64,000 bases of DNA from Eledone cirrhosa. Its lineage: Eukaryota. The translations under genes were made by a program, and so were the position numbers. The notes beneath the pieces are model-generated. The model saw nothing but the letters and a program-made list of their open reading frames with translations. It did no database searches and had not been told where the DNA came from. Shown piece by piece: positions 1 through 63,495 of the stretch (within the stretch, counting starts at the first letter, position 1; every line of letters starts with the position of its first letter). The stretch is from the NCBI GenBank assembly GCA_964016885.1, contig OZ024742.1, positions 35,526,001 through 35,590,000 of the forward strand, read 5' to 3'.

Positions 1-1043
1 ATCGATAATCATGCAAGTGAGGCAGGAATGTTACTTTAAATGTTAATGTATATCTTATATATTTTATGTCTATATATATGTATATATGTATGTAAATATA
101 TGTAGGGTGGAATCTTTTGTAACGCAATGAAGATTTTCATGAAATATAAGAATTTGTGGAGCATATCACGTAAGTTCACATGTGTGTCTATATTTATCAA
201 CTTGAATTTGAGATAACCTTCTCTTTTCTCTTTTTTCTTTTTTCATGAGAATGCATATATACTTATGTTTGAAGTTTTATCTCAGATTTTGCTTATAGAC
301 CTAAGAATTTTTAAACTAAGCATAGGGTCATTTTTTTCACACATTATGGATATGTGTCTCATTCATGAATACTGATATTTACATTATAATACCTAATTCA
401 TAAAAATTGATAATTCAAATGGATGAGACATAATATATTTTTAATATATTTTAAATATATCATCTTTCTTTCTTTTTCTCCTCTACACTGGATGTGATTT
501 ATGTGTCGGCTAGTTTAACTGTATCCCTTCCCTCCTTAACCTCTCACATATACGATGATCATCTGTCCAAAAGCTGCCTACTATATTTTTTCATTTCCGC
601 AATGTATTTCTCTCTCCCATATCTCCTTCTCTCTCTATCTCGCTCTGTTGTTTTTCTTTACATACATATCTTCATCTTCTTCTTTTTTATTTACATACAT
701 CTCTTCATCTACTTCTTTTCATCTTCGTTTTTCTTTCTATATAACTGTCATAACAGTTTCACTACCAAATCAACTTTTTAAATGGAAGTTGCATTATTAT
801 AAGGTATGTCAAAATTATTTATAAAACAGCTTATGTATTGTATTTTGTCTGAGGAAGGCATACCATATTTTTAATATGATATCCCAGAAATATATATAAC
901 GAAATAAATATGGTTTTATAAATATAGTTTCCATTTGTCTAATATCGTAAACCTACTCCAGAAACTGTTGAGTGCTTTTATATCAGTTATAAAATATTTA
1001 CTCGTTGTAACCCAACAATTTTAAATAAAACTTTTGCATATAT
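1..1043 (+). repeat. Upstream pseudo-LTR (truncated by window edge)
   Basis: Near-identical to 3724-4767 (about 8 differences seen by eye). Confidence 0.95.
841..906 (+). ncRNA. Type I hammerhead ribozyme in pLTR
   Basis: TATTTTGT-CTGAGGA-A-GGCATACCATATT..AATATGATATCCC-A-GAAA-TATATA-TA/ACGAAATA; 8-bp stem I, palindromic stem III, predicted cut after 898. Confidence 0.85.
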
Positions 1044-1086: not shown

Positions 1087-3312
1087 ATGGAATTCTTTAA
1101 GATCTCTTCTTCTCTAAAAGACATACCTCTACCTAGAAACAAGGACTTTATTAAACAACTAATAGATAAATCAGACTCCTTTATAAGGAGAATCAGGTGG
1201 CGTGCATTCCACTTTGATAAATCTAAATCTAATGTAAATGAAAATGTCTCAGACCTAGACAGAGTCTTCAAATCTAAAAAAAATCCACCCCCCAACAAAC
1301 TTTTGAATGATTTTGAAAACGATATAATCTCTATCATACAAGGAGTCAGATTCAAGAGAAACTTCAATGGCCAGGAATATCTGAAAAGCATTAAGGATAA
1401 CATTGCGAGCTTAGAGAGAACAGAGAAGATCTTGGTGAAATCGGACAAAACCAACAACCTCTATGGAGTGGAAAAAGACATGTATAATGGCCTCATACTG
1501 AAAGAACTAAGGAAAAAGTACAAGGTAGCAGATAAGGCTGAACTTGAGAAAATGAATGTTGAGGCATCTTGTATAATGCATGAGTTGGAAATTGAGAACA
1601 AAACACAAACTTTCGTGCCCAGGAAACCCAAGATCAATATGAAAGATCACAAGAGAAATTTTGAAAATGACTTGCCATTCAGGTTGATTGCACCATCAAA
1701 ATCTGACCTGGGTAAACTTAGCAAGAACATTCTAGACAGAGTGATACAGCAAATTAAGGACTTGAATTGTTTACCTGGCTTGACCTTGTGGAAGGGAACT
1801 GGGGAGGTCATTGAGTGGTTTAATGAAATTAAATATAACAATAATAATAAATTTATTCAACTAGATATTGCTAACTACTATTCATCCATTACCCCTAATC
1901 TACTAAATAAGGCACTAAATTACGCATTCAAGCATACAGACCTAACTAGCAATGAAATGCACATTATATTATCGGCAAGGAAAACATTGATAGAATTTAA
2001 TAACCAACTATGGACTAGGGCAGATAGAGATAATAATTTCGACATTACTATGGGATCATCAGACTCAGCTCAGGTAACGGACCTTGTGGGCCTATTTATA
2101 ATTAATTCGCTGCATAGGAAAATACCCGGTGTTACCGGAGGTTTATATAGAGATGACATGCTTTTACTTATTGAAAATAATAACTCTGAACTAAATAAGA
2201 AAAGAAAACAAATTATACAATTTTTTAATTACCTTAATCTAAAAATAGAAATTGAGAATAACCATAGAATAGTCAATTTCCTAGACGTAACATTAAATCT
2301 CAACACATGTCTTCACTATCCATTTCACAAGTTAAATGAAAACTTGAATTATGTCAATTTTAGCTCCAATCACCCCAGATCTGTCAAAAATACTATAGTG
2401 AACTCTGTTCAAAACCGTATCTCTAGAATCTCTTCCAATAAAAATATTTTTGACGAAAAAGCCCAGTATTATAATGAAGCGTTAGCTAGAGCAGGATATA
2501 CTGATAAAATTATGTACATCGATAATAGACAAACTAACCAAAATAACAACAATTTTAATTACAGTAACAACTTTAACAACTATAATAGAAAGCACTACAA
2601 TAATTCCAAAAACCAGAAAAGAAATAGAACTAGAAATATAATATGGTTTGCCCCCCCTTTCTCACTAAACATTAAAACCCACATCGCTAAACTATTTTTT
2701 AATGCTCTTGACAAACGCTTCCCTAGAACACATAAGTATCACTCAATTTTCAATAGACATACTATAAAATTAACGTACTCGTCCACCAAAAATTTAGCAC
2801 AAAATATTAATAGAATAAATAATAGGAATCTAAAACCTAGCCAAAATACCGAAAATAGCCTAAACAATATTCAAGTAAAAAACTGTAACTGTAGAGATAG
2901 ATCTAAATGTCCGCTAAATAACAATTGCTTAGTTAAAAATATAATATACAACTGTAATGTTAAAACTGATTTAAATTCTTTTAATTATGTTGGTTCCACC
3001 TCGACAGAATTTAAACTTCGCTATAATAATCACAAAAATTCTTTCACGGATCCAAATAAAAAATCTTCAACATCGCTGTCAGGCTTACTCTGGCAACTTA
3101 AACATGATAAAGTTGGATATTCGATGGTTTGGAATATAGTCTCAAAAGGGATTCCTTTTAATTCCTCTTCTGAGACATGTGACCTCTGCGCGGAGGAGAT
3201 ATTCTTTATACTAAAATCTAAAAATTCCCTTAATTTACGAACCAATTTATTCAGCTGCTGCAGACATAGATCGAACTCAACTTTTAAATATAAATATAAA
3301 TTTAAAATGTAG
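1087..3312 (+). CDS. PLE polyprotein: reverse transcriptase + Cys-rich linker + GIY-YIG endonuclease (741 aa)
   Basis: RT motifs QLDIANYYSSI, ITMGSSDSAQ, GLYRDDM, NFLDVTL; linker CNCRDRSKCPLNNNC; GIY-YIG IIY...YVGST...KLRYNNH...CDLCAEE...LN; no internal stops. Confidence 0.95.
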   Translation: MEFFKISSSLKDIPLPRNKDFIKQLIDKSDSFIRRIRWRAFHFDKSKSNVNENVSDLDRVFKSKKNPPPNKLLNDFENDIISIIQGVRFKRNFNGQEYLKSIKDNIASLERTEKILVKSDKTNNLYGVEKDMYNGLILKELRKKYKVADKAELEKMNVEASCIMHELEIENKTQTFVPRKPKINMKDHKRNFENDLPFRLIAPSKSDLGKLSKNILDRVIQQIKDLNCLPGLTLWKGTGEVIEWFNEIKYNNNNKFIQLDIANYYSSITPNLLNKALNYAFKHTDLTSNEMHIILSARKTLIEFNNQLWTRADRDNNFDITMGSSDSAQVTDLVGLFIINSLHRKIPGVTGGLYRDDMLLLIENNNSELNKKRKQIIQFFNYLNLKIEIENNHRIVNFLDVTLNLNTCLHYPFHKLNENLNYVNFSSNHPRSVKNTIVNSVQNRISRISSNKNIFDEKAQYYNEALARAGYTDKIMYIDNRQTNQNNNNFNYSNNFNNYNRKHYNNSKNQKRNRTRNIIWFAPPFSLNIKTHIAKLFFNALDKRFPRTHKYHSIFNRHTIKLTYSSTKNLAQNINRINNRNLKPSQNTENSLNNIQVKNCNCRDRSKCPLNNNCLVKNIIYNCNVKTDLNSFNYVGSTSTEFKLRYNNHKNSFTDPNKKSSTSLSGLLWQLKHDKVGYSMVWNIVSKGIPFNSSSETCDLCAEEIFFILKSKNSLNLRTNLFSCCRHRSNSTFKYKYKFKM

Positions 3313-3723
3313 TATAAAATGTAGTATATTTACTTAAGATATTTAACTATTTATGAAACTTGGCGATAAATCTTTCGATTCCTTCAATTTTTTTAAAAAC
3401 CTTTCTGCATGAATATATAATTAATGAGATCAAATAAACTACCCTAAAATTGGCGATGTTCCCAATCTTTTGAATAAATTTTTAAGCTGGATAAACTTCT
3501 ATAATAAATATAAGAGCATTTGTAGAATAAGTTTTGAATGATTTCTGCTAAATAAGGCTTGGTGAACAATTTTGGTTTTGTTTGCTTTTGATTCTGATTT
3601 TATGTGACTGATATGCGTGGCATACTATGTTCTCTTGCGTCCCTAGATACTCTGTGGAGTGACGAAGATATTCTTGGCGTTTTTAATTTTTAATATTGAT
3701 ATCTGTTGTCTATTCTATGCTTG

Positions 3724-5640
<1,917 letters not shown>

Positions 5641-5844: not shown

Positions 5845-6025
5845 CTTGACTGTCACCACATATTATGAACCTGAAGATTGCGAAAGCATGAAAGTACTTG
5901 TTCAATTAACACTTAGAATTTAATATTCTATCATACTATTTCATTATAATAATTATAATACCATTATAAATTTTAAAGGATTGTAAATAAAACGAGTAAA
6001 TCAGACAAAATTGGAATTCCTCTTA

Positions 6026-7263: not shown

Positions 7264-7560
7264 ATACCTTTGTTTTTAATTGGGGTGTTTATATATGTGC
7301 GCGCGTACACGTGTAGGTATGGGTGTGTGAGGACCGGAGTGGTCAGCTGGACATTAACAGGATGTGAAACAATGACCGTTCAGTGGGCAGCTGTGGGGTT
7401 AAGTACTGTTCGGTATTTGTGCCATGTTAGGGTGAGCCCGTTTAGCATCAAAACAACATACTTAAATGTCATTACAGATGTTGTTGTGCCGCTGACTAGA
7501 CCCTTATAAAATTATACATATCAATCAATTAATCTATCTATCCATATATATATATATATA

Positions 7561-7760
7561 TATTTTATAGAAGGAGCTTCTACAGGACTAGTACTGTTTC
7601 ATTCAGATGAAATCTTCATAGAGCTTCCTGAAGATTTCATCTGAATGAAACAGTACTAGTCCTGTAGAAGCTCCTTCTATAAAATAAAAAAATGTTTACT
7701 CTGCCATGTATTGAGTACCTTACTTACTGTGGTTATCCCCGACTCAACCCGGGACCTACG
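7561..7760 (+). mobile_element. Fold-back mini-element with hammerhead, (TA)n-bounded (family A)
   Basis: 58-bp perfect inverted arms 7561-7618/7629-7686 plus tail; relative at 57190-57366. Confidence 0.8.
7621..7673 (+). ncRNA. Type I hammerhead ribozyme (family A)
   Basis: GAGCTTC-CTGAAGA-TTTCATCTGAAT-GAAA-CAG(TACTAGTC)CTG-TA/GAAGCTC; perfect 7-bp stem I, weak stem II. Confidence 0.75.
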
Positions 7761-8149: not shown

Positions 8150-9545
8150 ATTAAAATATAAATATTAATAAAATAGATGTTCTTTTGATCAATTACATTT
8201 TATTATACATATTTCGAATGTACAACAGTACGTCCTCATCAGACAAAATATAATAATACATGACATGATGTTAAATGGTTAAGATTTAATCAAGGTAGTG
8301 ATTAACCCAATAGAAAATTTTACATATATAGTCTAATTATGAGAAAATGCGAAAACATAATAAATTCATTAGAGAATGTGTGAGTAAGAAAAAACGTTGC
8401 TTACTGTAACTGTTCTAAAGGTTTTAAAATGTATGATACTACGATATATCTAGGAAAACATCTCATGAATCATAACAGCCACAGTGATAGCCACGGGGGG
8501 GGGGGGGGGGGATATATACAGAAGGAGATTTTTTCCAAAAGTTAAACGGTTAAATTTGAAAATATTTAATTTATAATATTAGGGTGAAAACTCCAGATTT
8601 CAGGATTATTTGCTGGTTATTTATATATTATTTTTATAAATTCGATAAGTGTGTTATCATTTCTAAACTTCAGAATTTTATGAGGTTAACATTTAAAGGA
8701 TTTGGCTGGCACATAAAGAATGAAATATTATACTGATGATTATTTACCTAAATTTAAACCTTAACAAAGATACCGACATATTAGGTATGTAGAGCTTTTG
8801 AAGTACTTATTGTTATAAATATTTAAATAACTATTATGTATATAGGTAAATATTAATGAGCCAGTATGTTTAAGGTAAATAATAACGACGAAGATAAAAA
8901 TAAAATAAGATAATAGATTGAAGCATGTTAAGGATAAATATACACCTATGTATAACTGGGTGTAAATGTACTAATTATTCTTCAACCAAGATATCAACAT
9001 ACTATTAGATATAGGGAGGTATATATATAGATATATATTAGGTATTAGTGGTGCAGTATACTTTAGGTAAATGATAACAGTTATAATTTTATAAAGTAGA
9101 GTTCAACGTGTTACATTTAAATACATATATATAAGAAAAACAATAATGAGTGCATGGATAATTCAGAGTTCAAAATAATGTCTATAATAACTTTTAGTTT
9201 GGATATTTCTCTATATTTGAATCATATATATAGAAATGTGGTAGGTATATTTAAAAATATATAAAATATAATATATAACTACACACATATTATAATACAT
9301 TATATTATAAATAAGAGATCAAAAACTCATTAAAAATTCACAGTTATAGATAAGTTTCATAAAAATGTATGGATTGGGTATTAAACTAAAATTTAAAAGA
9401 GATCAAAAATGTATTAAAAATTCACAGTTATATATAAATTCCGTAAATATGTAAGGATTAGGTATTATACTAAATTATAAGCATAGATAGGAAGATCTAC
9501 AGTAAAACTCATTCTTTGACATAATCATTGAATATCGTTTAACAC

Positions 9546-16003: not shown

Positions 16004-16149
16004 TAATAATAATAAACTGTTAAAACTAACGATGCCTACCCTATCTGGTTAATACTCGGTAGTCATTGTATATAAAGCGAAGTTAAGGAAAAATGCAAAC
16101 AGTAATGATAATAATCTGGCAGAGTTAAATGTGATGTAGACATTATTAC

Positions 16150-16376
16150 CTCGATGTAATCCCAACATTTGTTGGCGTTCTCTGATTGGGCTTCTTCTAA
16201 TTCAAAGTGCCGGAAAGTTAACTTTACGCGACTTCCGGCGCTTAGTCTTATTCTCCACTCGCAGCGTTCATTGTCGGCATATGTTCCTCTTGTAAAATTG
16301 GGTGATTGTATGATTCCAGTCCAGTTCTTAAATACGAAACCGTTTGTTCCTGAACTGCAGGTAGATTTGACAGGGT
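16150..16376 (-). CDS. Exon 2 of CUB-domain protein (N-terminal half of CUB domain)
   Basis: cag|(D)PVKSTCSSGTNGFVFKNWTGIIQSPNFTRGTYADNERCEWRIRLSAGSRVKLTFRHFELEEAQSENANKCWDYIE|gtaat; joins 9925 in frame; not in the supplied ORF track. Confidence 0.9.
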
Positions 16377-16457
16377 CTGTGCGGATGAAAGAATATATAT
16401 ATGAATGTAGAGTAAATATATAAATAAGTGGCGAACAGAAAAGAGTAAAAAGGCAAA

Positions 16458-16538
<81 letters not shown>

Positions 16539-16645
16539 GTGTGTATGTGTGTGTGTGTGTGTGTGTTGTATTTCCGTAGAAAAGGTAAAGGAAAGAAGAG
16601 TGCTCTATGCATAGTACAGAGCTATTTAATTATACAATAAACAAC

Positions 16646-31835: not shown

Positions 31836-32941
31836 TCTTCTGGTTTTATATTTTCACAAATTTTTTTCCCAATAGAGAGAGAGAGAGTCGGTTTCTAACA
31901 TAGACACAAGACTCTCTCATTGGAATTTACACAACATCAACTAGGTAGATATGTATGTGTGTCTGCATGCATGTATGTGTGTGCAGGTATGGATGTTATT
32001 GTATGTGTGGATGTGGATGTTTTGAGTTGTATGTGTGCATATGCATATACTTTGTATCTGTACATGTGTATATGCAGTTATTAGATGCAGAATTTGTGGA
32101 ATATTTTACGTATTTTTACTGCTCCATTAATGGATTGTACTTGTAATTTTGTAACTAGTCGTGTTCTTTCTGTTTCTGTGAAGTCCGGCTTCTCAAGATT
32201 TGTATTGAGGCAGTTACTAACATACCCCAGTGTTCCAATAATCACAGGCATAAATCTGAAGGTGTAATCAGGGTGGAGTATCTGCAGATTTCTCATTAGT
32301 TCTGCATAGATATTCGCCTTTTCGATAATCTTTGATATTATATTGGCACCTGCTGGGCAGCTAACTTCCACTACTGTGCATGCCTTCTTTTCCCTGTCCC
32401 ATATCATTATATCTGGTCTGTTATGCCTGCATTTTATTGGGGTTTTTACTGGAACATTCCACCAGCACACTTTCATATTATGTATATGTATTTCTTCCAC
32501 ATTGCTGTAGCTTTTAATATGTTTATTGTCAGGGCTATTTTTTCTACGGATTGCATTGTACAGTGTTTTGGCCGCTACATCATGCATCATAAGCAGATAG
32601 TACCGTGATGACATCTTTGAACAGCAGCTTATGACATGGGTGACATCTTCGATGTTAACTCTGCAGAGTCTGCATCTGTTGTCACATCTAGGTGTTTTTC
32701 TTGCATCCCTATCTCTTGTGTGAATCAGGTATTTCGTGTTGATTTCCTGTTCTTAGATTGCATATCCTTCAAAGTGGGAGCCAATATAGCGGTTGTTGAT
32801 CAAAGATAGACTACTTAGCTTATTTATATTATTCTCACTCTGGTGATTAGTGTGTCTTTTGCTGATAAGCATGCATTTTTCATCCATGGATTCACTACGG
32901 TACTGCTGGGCAGCTTCCCTCGGTATGAGGTTTTGATTATC
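31835..32941 (-). mobile_element. 5'-truncated R4/Dong-like non-LTR retrotransposon (CCHC finger + restriction-like endonuclease)
   Basis: CRLC..EDVTHVISCC..HD..WWNVP..HNRPDIMIWD..VVEVSCP..EK..Y; flanked by (TATG)n on both sides. Confidence 0.8.
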
Positions 32942-58450: not shown

Positions 58451-58495
58451 ATTAGCCAACAATGTTTCGTCCTATTAAGGACTCATCAGGGCAAT
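58451..58495 (-). ncRNA. Minimal type I hammerhead
   Basis: Reverse complement of 60212-60256. Confidence 0.8.
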
Positions 58496-60211: not shown

Positions 60212-60256
60212 ATTGCCCTGATGAGTCCTTAATAGGACGAAACATTGTTGGCTAAT
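60212..60256 (+). ncRNA. Minimal type I hammerhead
   Basis: ATTGCC-CTGATGA-GTCCT(TAAT)AGGAC-GAAA-CATTG-TT/GGCTAAT. Confidence 0.8.
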
Positions 60257-60624: not shown

Positions 60625-60814
60625 ATATATATATATACATTCTCTCTCTGCCACACACTTAAATATGTGTGCGTGTGTGTGTTTGTATAATATATTATAT
60701 ATATATATATTAAAGAGTTAAACAAGTTTCAATCAGTATATCAGAGAATGAGTTTTACAGTAGATTGATTAAATCTTAACCATTTAACATCTCAGGGTAT
60801 GTCATATATCATTA

Positions 60815-60869
60815 TATTTTGTCTGATGAGGACGTACTGTTGTACCTCCGAAATATGTATAATAAAATG
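60815..60869 (+). ncRNA. Type I hammerhead in mini-element 60710-60915
   Basis: TATTTTGT-CTGATGA-GGACGTACTGTTGTACCTCC-GAAA-TATGTA-TA/ATAAAATG. Confidence 0.85.
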
Positions 60870-60951
60870 TAATTGATCGAAAGAACATCTATTTTATTAA
60901 TATTTGTATTTTAATATATATATATATATTCTCTCACTGTCACACACTTAA

Positions 60952-61946: not shown

Positions 61947-62139
61947 AATCTACCAAAATATACGGTAGTGTCCAATCCGTATGAAGAACTCAATGTAATC
62001 CAAATATCATGAAAAAAGATGCATTCACAAATTTTCGATAAAAATCACAGGAAAATAGAGTCAAGATAAATTAATAAAAACAATGAAATTAAAACAAAGA
62101 ACAAGTTCCTTATATTAAAAAATTCATCATTTTATAGAA

Positions 62140-62552
62140 TCAAAAGAAATCGCCCATTAAAGGGAAATTATCTTATTAATAACATAGTCTATAAATGTAA
62201 AATTAGCACTAAGGATTCCACTTATTCAGATATAGGAGCTACGTCTAGCTAATTTAAAATAAGATTTAATACCCACAAACATAGTTTTAAAAATGCCGCA
62301 TTAGCTAATACAATATCCTTGGCTGAAACAATTAATGATTATAGAAAGAAGAATATCGATTACAACCTGACCTGGAGCGTGCTCAAAAGGGCCACCCCTT
62401 ATCAAAATAACAGATACGAGTGTAGGTTATGCTCCCAGGAACTTTTTGAAATCATGAAATCTAAGGATATCCTATTAAATAAAAGACAGGAATTAATTAT
62501 ATCTTGCAATCATAGAATTAGAAGAACCTTCAAATATTATAAACCTAATTAA
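62140..62552 (+). pseudogene. GIY-YIG domain relic homologous to the C-terminus of ORF 1087-3312
   Basis: NNIVYKC..IGATSS*FKIRFNTHKHSF..W.VL..CRLCSQE..LLNKRQELIISCNHR..TFKY. Confidence 0.85.
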
Positions 62553-63252
62553 TATACACCTTAATCTTATATTTTACAAGTTATTATAATTGTTTTTTTT
62601 TTATTTAGTTAACCTATAATTAGTATCTTACTACAGAGAACTTCATAATTTTATTTCCCTCTTACAGCTCTCTTTTCCTAAAATTAATACCTAAAAGTAT
62701 ACCTATAATTTAATTTAATTTCCTGTTATGTATCTAGATTCCTTGTAGTTTAAATAAGATTAGTATTTCTCACTACTACCCTTATCCCAAAATTTTACTT
62801 TCCTTCGTTTTTAACAACACTCTTTAATAACATCTAATTCTTATTTATCACATTCATATGAATTAATATAACTTTATCCCTATAAGTATACCTATCAATT
62901 AATTTAATTTCTTGTTATAGATCTAGATTCCTTGTGGTTTAAATAAGATTGGTATTTCTCACTAATACCCTTACTGTAAAATGTTATTTTCCTTCGTTTT
63001 TAACATTATTCTTTAATAACATCAAATGTTCGTGTGCCTTTCACTATCTTCTTGGCTTGACCTCTTTTCATCCCCAAAGTATTCTTTTCATTCAAAACAT
63101 AAGTCTGCACCCCTCTACCCCTAAATTAAATTTCTACTACTACTATTCTATCAACTTGACCTCTAACTACTTTTCTATTGGTCAATTCAAAACCTGTTCC
63201 CAAACAGATCTTTTATATTAAATCTTTGTTTGTTTTTTTCAATAAACACATC

Positions 63253-63388
63253 TCATCATTTCTGAGGACGGCATGTATATGTGAAGGTATGTATATTTCC
63301 TCTGATAATTTGTAATATTTTTACATAGATCTATATGATATACATACCAACACACATATACATCCCAGAAACGATCGTAAAATGATGA
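63253..63388 (+). ncRNA. Type I hammerhead with ~100-nt stem II
   Basis: TCATCATTT-CTGAGGA-C-GGCATGTATATGTG..GGTATGTATAT...ATATACATACC..CACATATACATCCC-A-GAAA-CGATCG-TA/AAATGATGA; perfect 9-bp stem I. Confidence 0.8.
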
Positions 63389-63435
63389 TTTTTTAAATAT
63401 AAGGAACTTGTTCTTTGTTTTTATTTCATTGCTTT

Positions 63436-63495
<60 letters not shown>

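Follow-up and report, generated by a model that had tools for sequence, protein, structure and literature searches.

This locus of Eledone cirrhosa (contig OZ024742.1 of assembly GCA_964016885.1, positions 35,526,001 to 35,590,000; the whole stretch of 64,000 nucleotides is called the window here) raises the question of what happens at the foot of stem II in two hammerhead motifs found near its two ends. A preliminary description had noticed that both read CUGAGGA-(A/C)-GGCAU...AUCCC-A-GAAA, which was confirmed at 841-906 and 63253-63388. It had taken the unpaired bases as one extra nucleotide on each side of the helix, and the whole as a conserved, clade-specific core shared by two PLE families that standard models may miss.

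The first motif (841-906, + strand, family A) has a stem I of 8 bp including one G-U (841-848/899-906), the core CUGAGGA at 849-855, GAAA at 887-890 and a stem II of 31 nt that starts with A856 and GG-C-AUA and ends with UAU-C-CC and A886. A10.1 (856) stands opposite A11.1 (886) and a C·C mismatch is found at 859/883. The palindrome AUAUAUAU at 890-897 corresponds to stem III, the triplet is AUA (896-898) and the cut is predicted after 898. An identical hammerhead is located 3,724 bases away at 4565-4630 (+; core at 4573, A4580·A4610, predicted cut after 4622) and is likely its dimer partner. The second motif (63253-63388, +, family B) has a 9-bp stem I, CUGAGGA at 63262-63268, a 99-nt stem II, GAAA at 63368-63371, the palindrome ACGAUCGU at 63371-63378 and the triplet GUA, with C10.1 (63269) facing A11.1 (63367). 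Slot 4 of its stem II holds C·C (63272/63364), and the cut is predicted after 63379. By folding, the order of stem II is the same in both motifs: mismatch, G-C, G-C, C·C, A-U, U-A. Both have the type I layout CUGANGA ... GAAA ... UH with three helices and an open stem I, and covariation across sibling hammerheads is in agreement with it.

The family A motif is found in both repeats of an element that occupies the beginning of the window. Its upstream pseudo-LTR (1-1043, +) is a 5'-truncated tandem copy; its start, preceded by a (TA)n run, lies some 50 bases ahead of the window. It is followed by an intact ORF of 741 amino acids (1087-3312, +) coding for an RT and, at the C terminus, a GIY-YIG-type endonuclease, and by the 3' UTR and downstream pseudo-LTR (3313-4767, +), which end at a (TA)n run. 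The repeats flanking this ORF (1-1043 and 3724-4767) are 99.1% identical. The ORF had zero matches in Pfam and contains RWR (for RWK), SDKTNNLY, CNCRDRSKC (the CxCX5C linker), CDLC (CxxC) and CRH (CxH). An RWK-like motif, DKT, the CxCX5C linker, CxxC and CxH in a C-terminal endonuclease and insertion at (TA)n are given as marks of the Hydra clade (Craig et al. 2021, PMC8557442, section 11). The insertion habits of this clade, namely the (TA)n target and partial tandem and inverted copies, were also found here, and compared by eye the protein resembles Hydra-1_Obim. Judged by these motifs and the by-eye match the element is a Hydra-clade PLE, our trees being limited to endonucleases within this genome. 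The arrangement is also that of the PLE dimer type, with a hammerhead in each repeat flanking the RT-endonuclease ORF and a palindromic stem III that is unstable as a monomer.

The family B element near the end of the window is truncated. It keeps an endonuclease remnant with one in-frame stop (62145-62549, +) that is 35% identical to the family A endonuclease over 128 amino acids (E 1e-22), confirming that the two elements have homologous endonucleases. At its 5' truncation point there is an inverted copy of the 3' tail (62072-62134 versus 63378-63440), the usual inverted-end structure of PLEs, and its 3' UTR contains a direct duplication of 158 bases (62681-62838 and 62870-63027, 86%). Two other coding stretches were seen in the window, both on the minus strand. 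An open stretch of 223 amino acids at 32081-32752 combines a CxxC...H...C zinc-knuckle-like motif with a PD-(D/E)xK-like tail and resembles the end of a restriction-like-endonuclease non-LTR retrotransposon, and an exon-like stretch at 16063-16629 coding for a CUB-domain-like peptide presumably belongs to a host gene.

At least 11 hammerhead motifs were found in the window. A sibling at 60811-60874 (+, core at 60823) combines the canonical G10.1-C11.1 with the slot-4 C·C and served as numbering ruler; a second copy of it has its core at 8242 (minus strand). Other hammerheads with G-C or A-U junctions are located at 60218 (+), 58451-58495 (-), 21406 (+), 58288 (+) and, as said, 8242 (-). Hammerhead-like motifs with U·U at 10.1/11.1 are found at 5871 (+), with a short GAAA-capped stem II like the published Hydra-clade ones, and at 7628 (+), inside a long inverted repeat (7560-7688). 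Throughout the genome (3.0 Gb) the pattern CTGAGGANGGCAT was matched 5,910 times and its reversed control 15 times, and a family A pattern with a short stem and the junction left open gave 21,864 against 1 in the control, so hammerhead motifs are far beyond chance expectation. Furthermore, 60 evenly spaced 10-kb stretches (600 kb), searched with an intact core required so that decayed copies are missed, contained 53 hammerheads, the reversed control giving 0. Collapsed to 31 insertions, these were G-C in 7, A-U in 7, C·A in 7, U·U in 6, G-U in 3 and A·G in 1, with A·A in 0. Since only 7 of the 31 sampled insertions are G-C, search descriptors should leave 10.1/11.1 free.

The suspicion that standard models may miss this variant proved right about the outcome and wrong about its cause. 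At E values up to 10, Rfam gave no hammerhead match in 700-1100 or 63150-63450, and none in 60700-60950, where the canonical sibling is located. As this G-C sibling (60823) is missed likewise, the junction is not the reason for the miss. The best 150 of the 202 Rfam matches in a scan of the whole window were mostly microsatellite noise and included two sub-threshold Hammerhead_1 matches. The pair at 60218/58451 provided the only hammerhead matches seen among the matches listed (29.1 bits, cut-off 34).

Are the unpaired bases extra? Twelve sibling hammerheads could be aligned free of gaps across the junction, and the disputed column is A-U in 7 of them, G-C in 3 and unpaired in 2. The C·C of slot 4, three steps beyond the disputed column, is unpaired in all 12, although the pairs around it covary, and is better conserved than the flagged junction itself. 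Actually, many families keep C·C or another mismatch at the fourth slot (18 of 22 such matches in the evenly spaced DNA). The alignment contains 9 pairs with two-sided changes, a number reached in 0 of 500 shuffles, a result not to be read as a probability given that the siblings are hand-picked relatives, and in slid-register controls pairing falls from 92% to 33-60%. Because the siblings align without gaps and the slot-4 C·C keeps a constant distance from the core, the unpaired bases are 10.1 and 11.1 themselves. On this alignment no nucleotides are added, and the closing pair of stem II is substituted by a mismatch.

The model proposed at first, in which G10.1-C11.1 is kept with an added unpaired base to either side of it, throughout the clade by descent, is by comparison very improbable. 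Both window copies do read mismatch, G-C, G-C, C·C, A-U, U-A, and for a single sequence an extra base on each side is topologically the same as a mismatch. In addition, an extra 5' base between positions 9 and 10.1 is described as the norm in other PLE hammerheads (PMC4209133). However, most family A copies, and siblings too, have the slot filled by a Watson-Crick pair, core and C·C stay equally far apart only when the mismatch is counted as 10.1/11.1, just 2 of 28 family B loci have G-C as the adjoining pair, and family A groups in the endonuclease tree with A-U families, apart from B. The 2014 minimal consensus for PLEs, in which an extra base lies between 9 and 10.1 and G10.1-C11.1 directly precedes G12, does not describe the window copies. 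For them we also rejected a slipped register, in which there is an extra 5' base and G pairs to the last one, the shifted pairing having a probability near 0. In the A·C subfamilies of family A (L012, L013, L181-L200; about 5,000 copies) a one-base slip gives the classical extra 5' A followed by G10.1-C11.1. It is possible that the slipped register restores G-C there, and such a slip may link the two types of junction.

What had been described as one conserved variant is, at the first motif, a minority form. Of the 21,864 matches to the family A pattern, 12,573 have A-U at the junction, 5,024 A·C and 1,209 A·A (6% of those starting with A), the other 3,058 including family C (C·A, see below), G-U and U·U. 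The family majority at 849 is thus a plain A-U pair, and the mismatch falls in one young clade, which tells against a family-wide core variant by the preliminary description's own standard. Contigs from two public sequencing runs, which may come from the assembly's own sample, have U and then C as the main letters at 4610. For the phylogeny of family A we used a tight region of flank plus ribozyme, in which 98 of 121 sequences were kept and thinned to 47 rows, an earlier and wider tree having been discarded for ancestry since truncated and inverted flanks confounded it. When the junction was masked, copies of the window type came together in one clade of 14 (support 97/95) among A-U subfamilies, with A·A in 12 of the 14 and A-U in 2. 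One more A·A copy was found elsewhere in the tree, and A·C appeared in at least two places. Judging from this tree, A·A is a recent change in a young sub-lineage nested among A-U subfamilies. The family A slot would then drift, A-U being ancestral, A·C having arisen at least twice and A·A once, recently.

The A·A sub-lineage has been mobile. Thirty loci were chosen by endonuclease identity, and the 27 with readable ribozymes comprised 25 A·A and 2 A-U. The endonuclease DNA of 29 such loci was 97.4-99.8% identical to the window copy and therefore, together with the 25 A·A out of 27, indicates that the element multiplied while carrying A·A. Copy number tells that the element moved and is not proof that the ribozyme cut: Naiad PLEs have spread without canonical hammerheads.

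In the canonical core the G10.1-C11.1 pair adjoins the sheared A9·G12 (PMC11300833), the N7 of G10.1 and the phosphate of A9 bind a metal, and 7-deaza-G10.1 is about 30-fold slower (PMC6961537, PMC6795133). An operational definition of the hammerhead motif restricts the base of stem II to R:Y or Y:Y (PMC10945747), a rule that the A-U majority of family A obeys and that the A·A and C·A of the window break. Being outside it, these two mismatches may cut at a much lower rate than U·U. The A·A at 849 might even be a crippled derivative hitch-hiking on an active master, cutting being dispensable or provided in trans by A-U siblings. The junction is derived, rare and confined to one young clade, its purine-purine pair is one that the rule excludes, and the A-U siblings have the same stem I and palindrome; in a dimer each core would cut the partner's site. 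We consider this unlikely, though: there are some 1,200 A·A copies in several sub-branches, with intact ORFs and a core that is perfect apart from the mismatch, an N7 is still available on A10.1 (though not on C10.1), and one published row of a PLE hammerhead has an A before GAAA together with an unpaired 5' base.

The second motif behaves differently. Patterns for family B and for a third family, C, which is absent from the window, were searched without fixing stem II. For family B there were 12,774 matches, 11,229 of them C·A, so the expectation of a conserved junction was borne out in the lineage of 63262 and failed in that of 849, where A-U predominates. Among the first 30 loci of the family B pattern 28 were family B, with C·A in 26 and U-A in 2. 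In these 28 loci slot 2 was G-U in 19, A-U in 6, G-C in 2 and A·C in 1, and slot 4 was C·C in all 28. The adjoining G-C is therefore a minority in family B, and a shared clade-specific core is unsupported.

Nor are the two families sisters. In the endonuclease tree (23 rows, quick mode and without bootstrap, with the hammerhead labels L226 and L308 being unreliable links) family A clusters with A-U families (SH-aLRT 96), separate from family B, the deep branches being weak; an earlier endonuclease tree had included families A and B only. The 3' UTRs of both families share just short low-complexity matches. From the tree placement and the unalike 3' UTRs, A·A and C·A are separate events. Both PLE hammerheads of the window lack G10.1-C11.1 next to the core, as had been said, but not as one variant, since the first is A·A (849) and the second C·A (63262).

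Family C gave 10,767 matches, and in the first 100 of these C10.1 was found in 99 and A11.1 in 100. It consists of tandem units of 520-570 bp, each with a type I hammerhead, with up to 10 of them in one 10-kb stretch (L264). Its loci (L061-L090, L268-L297) have the palindrome ACUAAUUAGU, U17 and a second hairpin just upstream of the ribozyme. Neither a linked endonuclease or ORF nor an autonomous partner was found in the 60 loci, which suggests a retrozyme-like element. Thirty of these loci were C·A without exception, while slot 3 was C-G in 11, U-A in 9, G-C in 6 and A-U in 4, and slot 6 was U-A in 17 and G-C in 13. Single C·A loci also appeared in three further families (L138, L056, L300). 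Among short-stem hammerheads C·A gave only 7 matches, below the control, and for this reason we associate C·A with long stems. Of the junctions outside the rule, C·A alone looks fixed, in more than 20,000 copies of families B and C, and this invariance fits selection better than mere tolerance.

The C10.1·A11.1 might accordingly be read as a selected element, a U·G-like wobble or a brake, defining an active junction class outside R:Y/Y:Y in hammerheads with a long stem II. A protonated C·A wobble would resemble U·G. We regard this reading as plausible while giving it less than an even chance. It would account for the near-complete C10.1 and A11.1 among the first 100 family C matches, for a C·A retained in 30 of 30 loci in which slots 3 and 6 vary between Watson-Crick pairs and in most family B copies with slot 2 changing among G-U, A-U and G-C, and for the presence of C·A in three more families and its link with long stems. 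However, four of the seven stem II slots of family C are near-invariant too, the evidence amounts to two letters fixed in some six related subfamilies and is modest, and the copies are relatives rather than independent events. Moreover, a comparison with the flanks for a neutral rate was confounded by truncated, inverted and non-homologous flanks, and family B also has U-A and C·U copies. Selection on C·A can nevertheless stand together with the explanation that we prefer for families B and C. The stronger statement, that a C·A fixed in several lineages is a functional, selected and active class without the G10.1 metal ligand, possibly acid-tuned or acting as a brake, seems to us rather doubtful.

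The explanation that we prefer, and consider probable on the analyses above, is that both motifs are type I hammerheads of Hydra-clade PLEs with a mismatched 10.1/11.1, likely cutting a tandem transcript as dimers and at a reduced rate. PLE hammerheads cut as dimers, slowly, and the proposal is that they release unit RNA out of tandem transcripts (PMC4209133; PMC6765202). In our folds stem III did not form within a single copy and was found as a self-duplex only (-3.2 and -10.0 kcal/mol); when the whole motifs were folded without constraints, as monomer or dimer, the core instead paired with the 3' side of stem II to form a rival helix. In the proposed mechanism the palindromes of the two copies would pair and each core would cut the site of its partner (after 898 and 4622), releasing, by analogy with published PLE hammerheads, a unit-length RNA for reverse transcription. 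Stem II would stay formed thanks to the long helix beyond the mismatch. The loss of G10.1 would cost part of the metal site, a price that slow PLE ribozymes may tolerate, and the slot would drift in family A and be fixed as C·A in families B and C.

The genome thus offers a natural allelic series at 10.1/11.1 in otherwise matched scaffolds (G-C, A-U, G-U, U·U, A·C, A·A and C·A), with thousands of copies of each. With it, two things become easier to test: the weight that this pair has when PLE hammerheads act as dimers, and whether cleavage is required for PLE transposition.

Neither C·A nor A·A at 10.1/11.1 was found described in the main texts of the literature considered, and no assay of either turned up there, although Lünse et al. 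2017 (PLE hammerhead variants) and Ruffner et al. 1990 may cover them. No discussion of the mismatch was found in the passages considered of Craig et al. 2021 (PMC8557442), and the main text of a retrozyme preprint (bioRxiv 10.64898/2026.07.22.740005) has no mention of mismatch or stem II. The published alignments are more informative. In File S2 of Craig et al. 2021 (PMC8557442) the junctions of 25 Hydra-clade families read U·U in 14, U·C in 1, G-C in 7, G-U in 2 and an extra G before A-U in 1, and PLE-X1_cBra, a non-Hydra element of Chara, has C·A. In Fig. S3 of PMC4209133 the row of Hydra magnipapillata has U·U, and AGAAA occurs in 1 of the 56 rows, which the list order makes row 29 (Cotesia), with A..A around G-C, the columns being lost in the text version.

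The Hydra-clade hammerheads are like those of the window in being type I, in a terminal repeat of a PLE with a C-terminal endonuclease inserted at (TA)n, and 15 of the 25 have a mismatched foot of stem II. Unlike the window motifs, the families of File S2 are without A·A or C·A, and the stems II described here are longer (31, 99 and about 50 nt) and have the slot-4 C·C. The minimal hammerheads of metazoan PLEs (PMC4209133) likewise have copies in flanking repeats, a palindromic stem III, cleavage as dimers, a low rate in vitro and an unpaired base after A9. However, in their consensus G10.1-C11.1 is kept and an extra base occurs solely on the 5' side, while here the slot is substituted and stem III is a palindrome of 8-10 nt. 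A natural mismatch at the base of stem II is also known from the U10.1·U11.1 of bacteria and phages (Perreault et al. 2011, PMC3088659) and from HHR_Amex2 of the axolotl, with U·U in about 60,000 copies, which cleaves 22% in 1 h as a monomer and more as a dimer (PMC7229834). These are pyrimidine-pyrimidine pairs, cited as the best-tolerated mismatch, in contrast to the A·A and C·A of the window. Family C resembles the non-LTR retrozymes (PMC7229834; bioRxiv 10.64898/2026.07.22.740005) in its tandem units with a type I hammerhead and no linked endonuclease in 60 loci, and differs from them in the longer unit (520-570 bp), the PLE-like inverted copies and (TA)n insertion and the fixed C·A. A mismatched foot of stem II in PLE hammerheads is therefore already published, and the window motifs are further members of that group.
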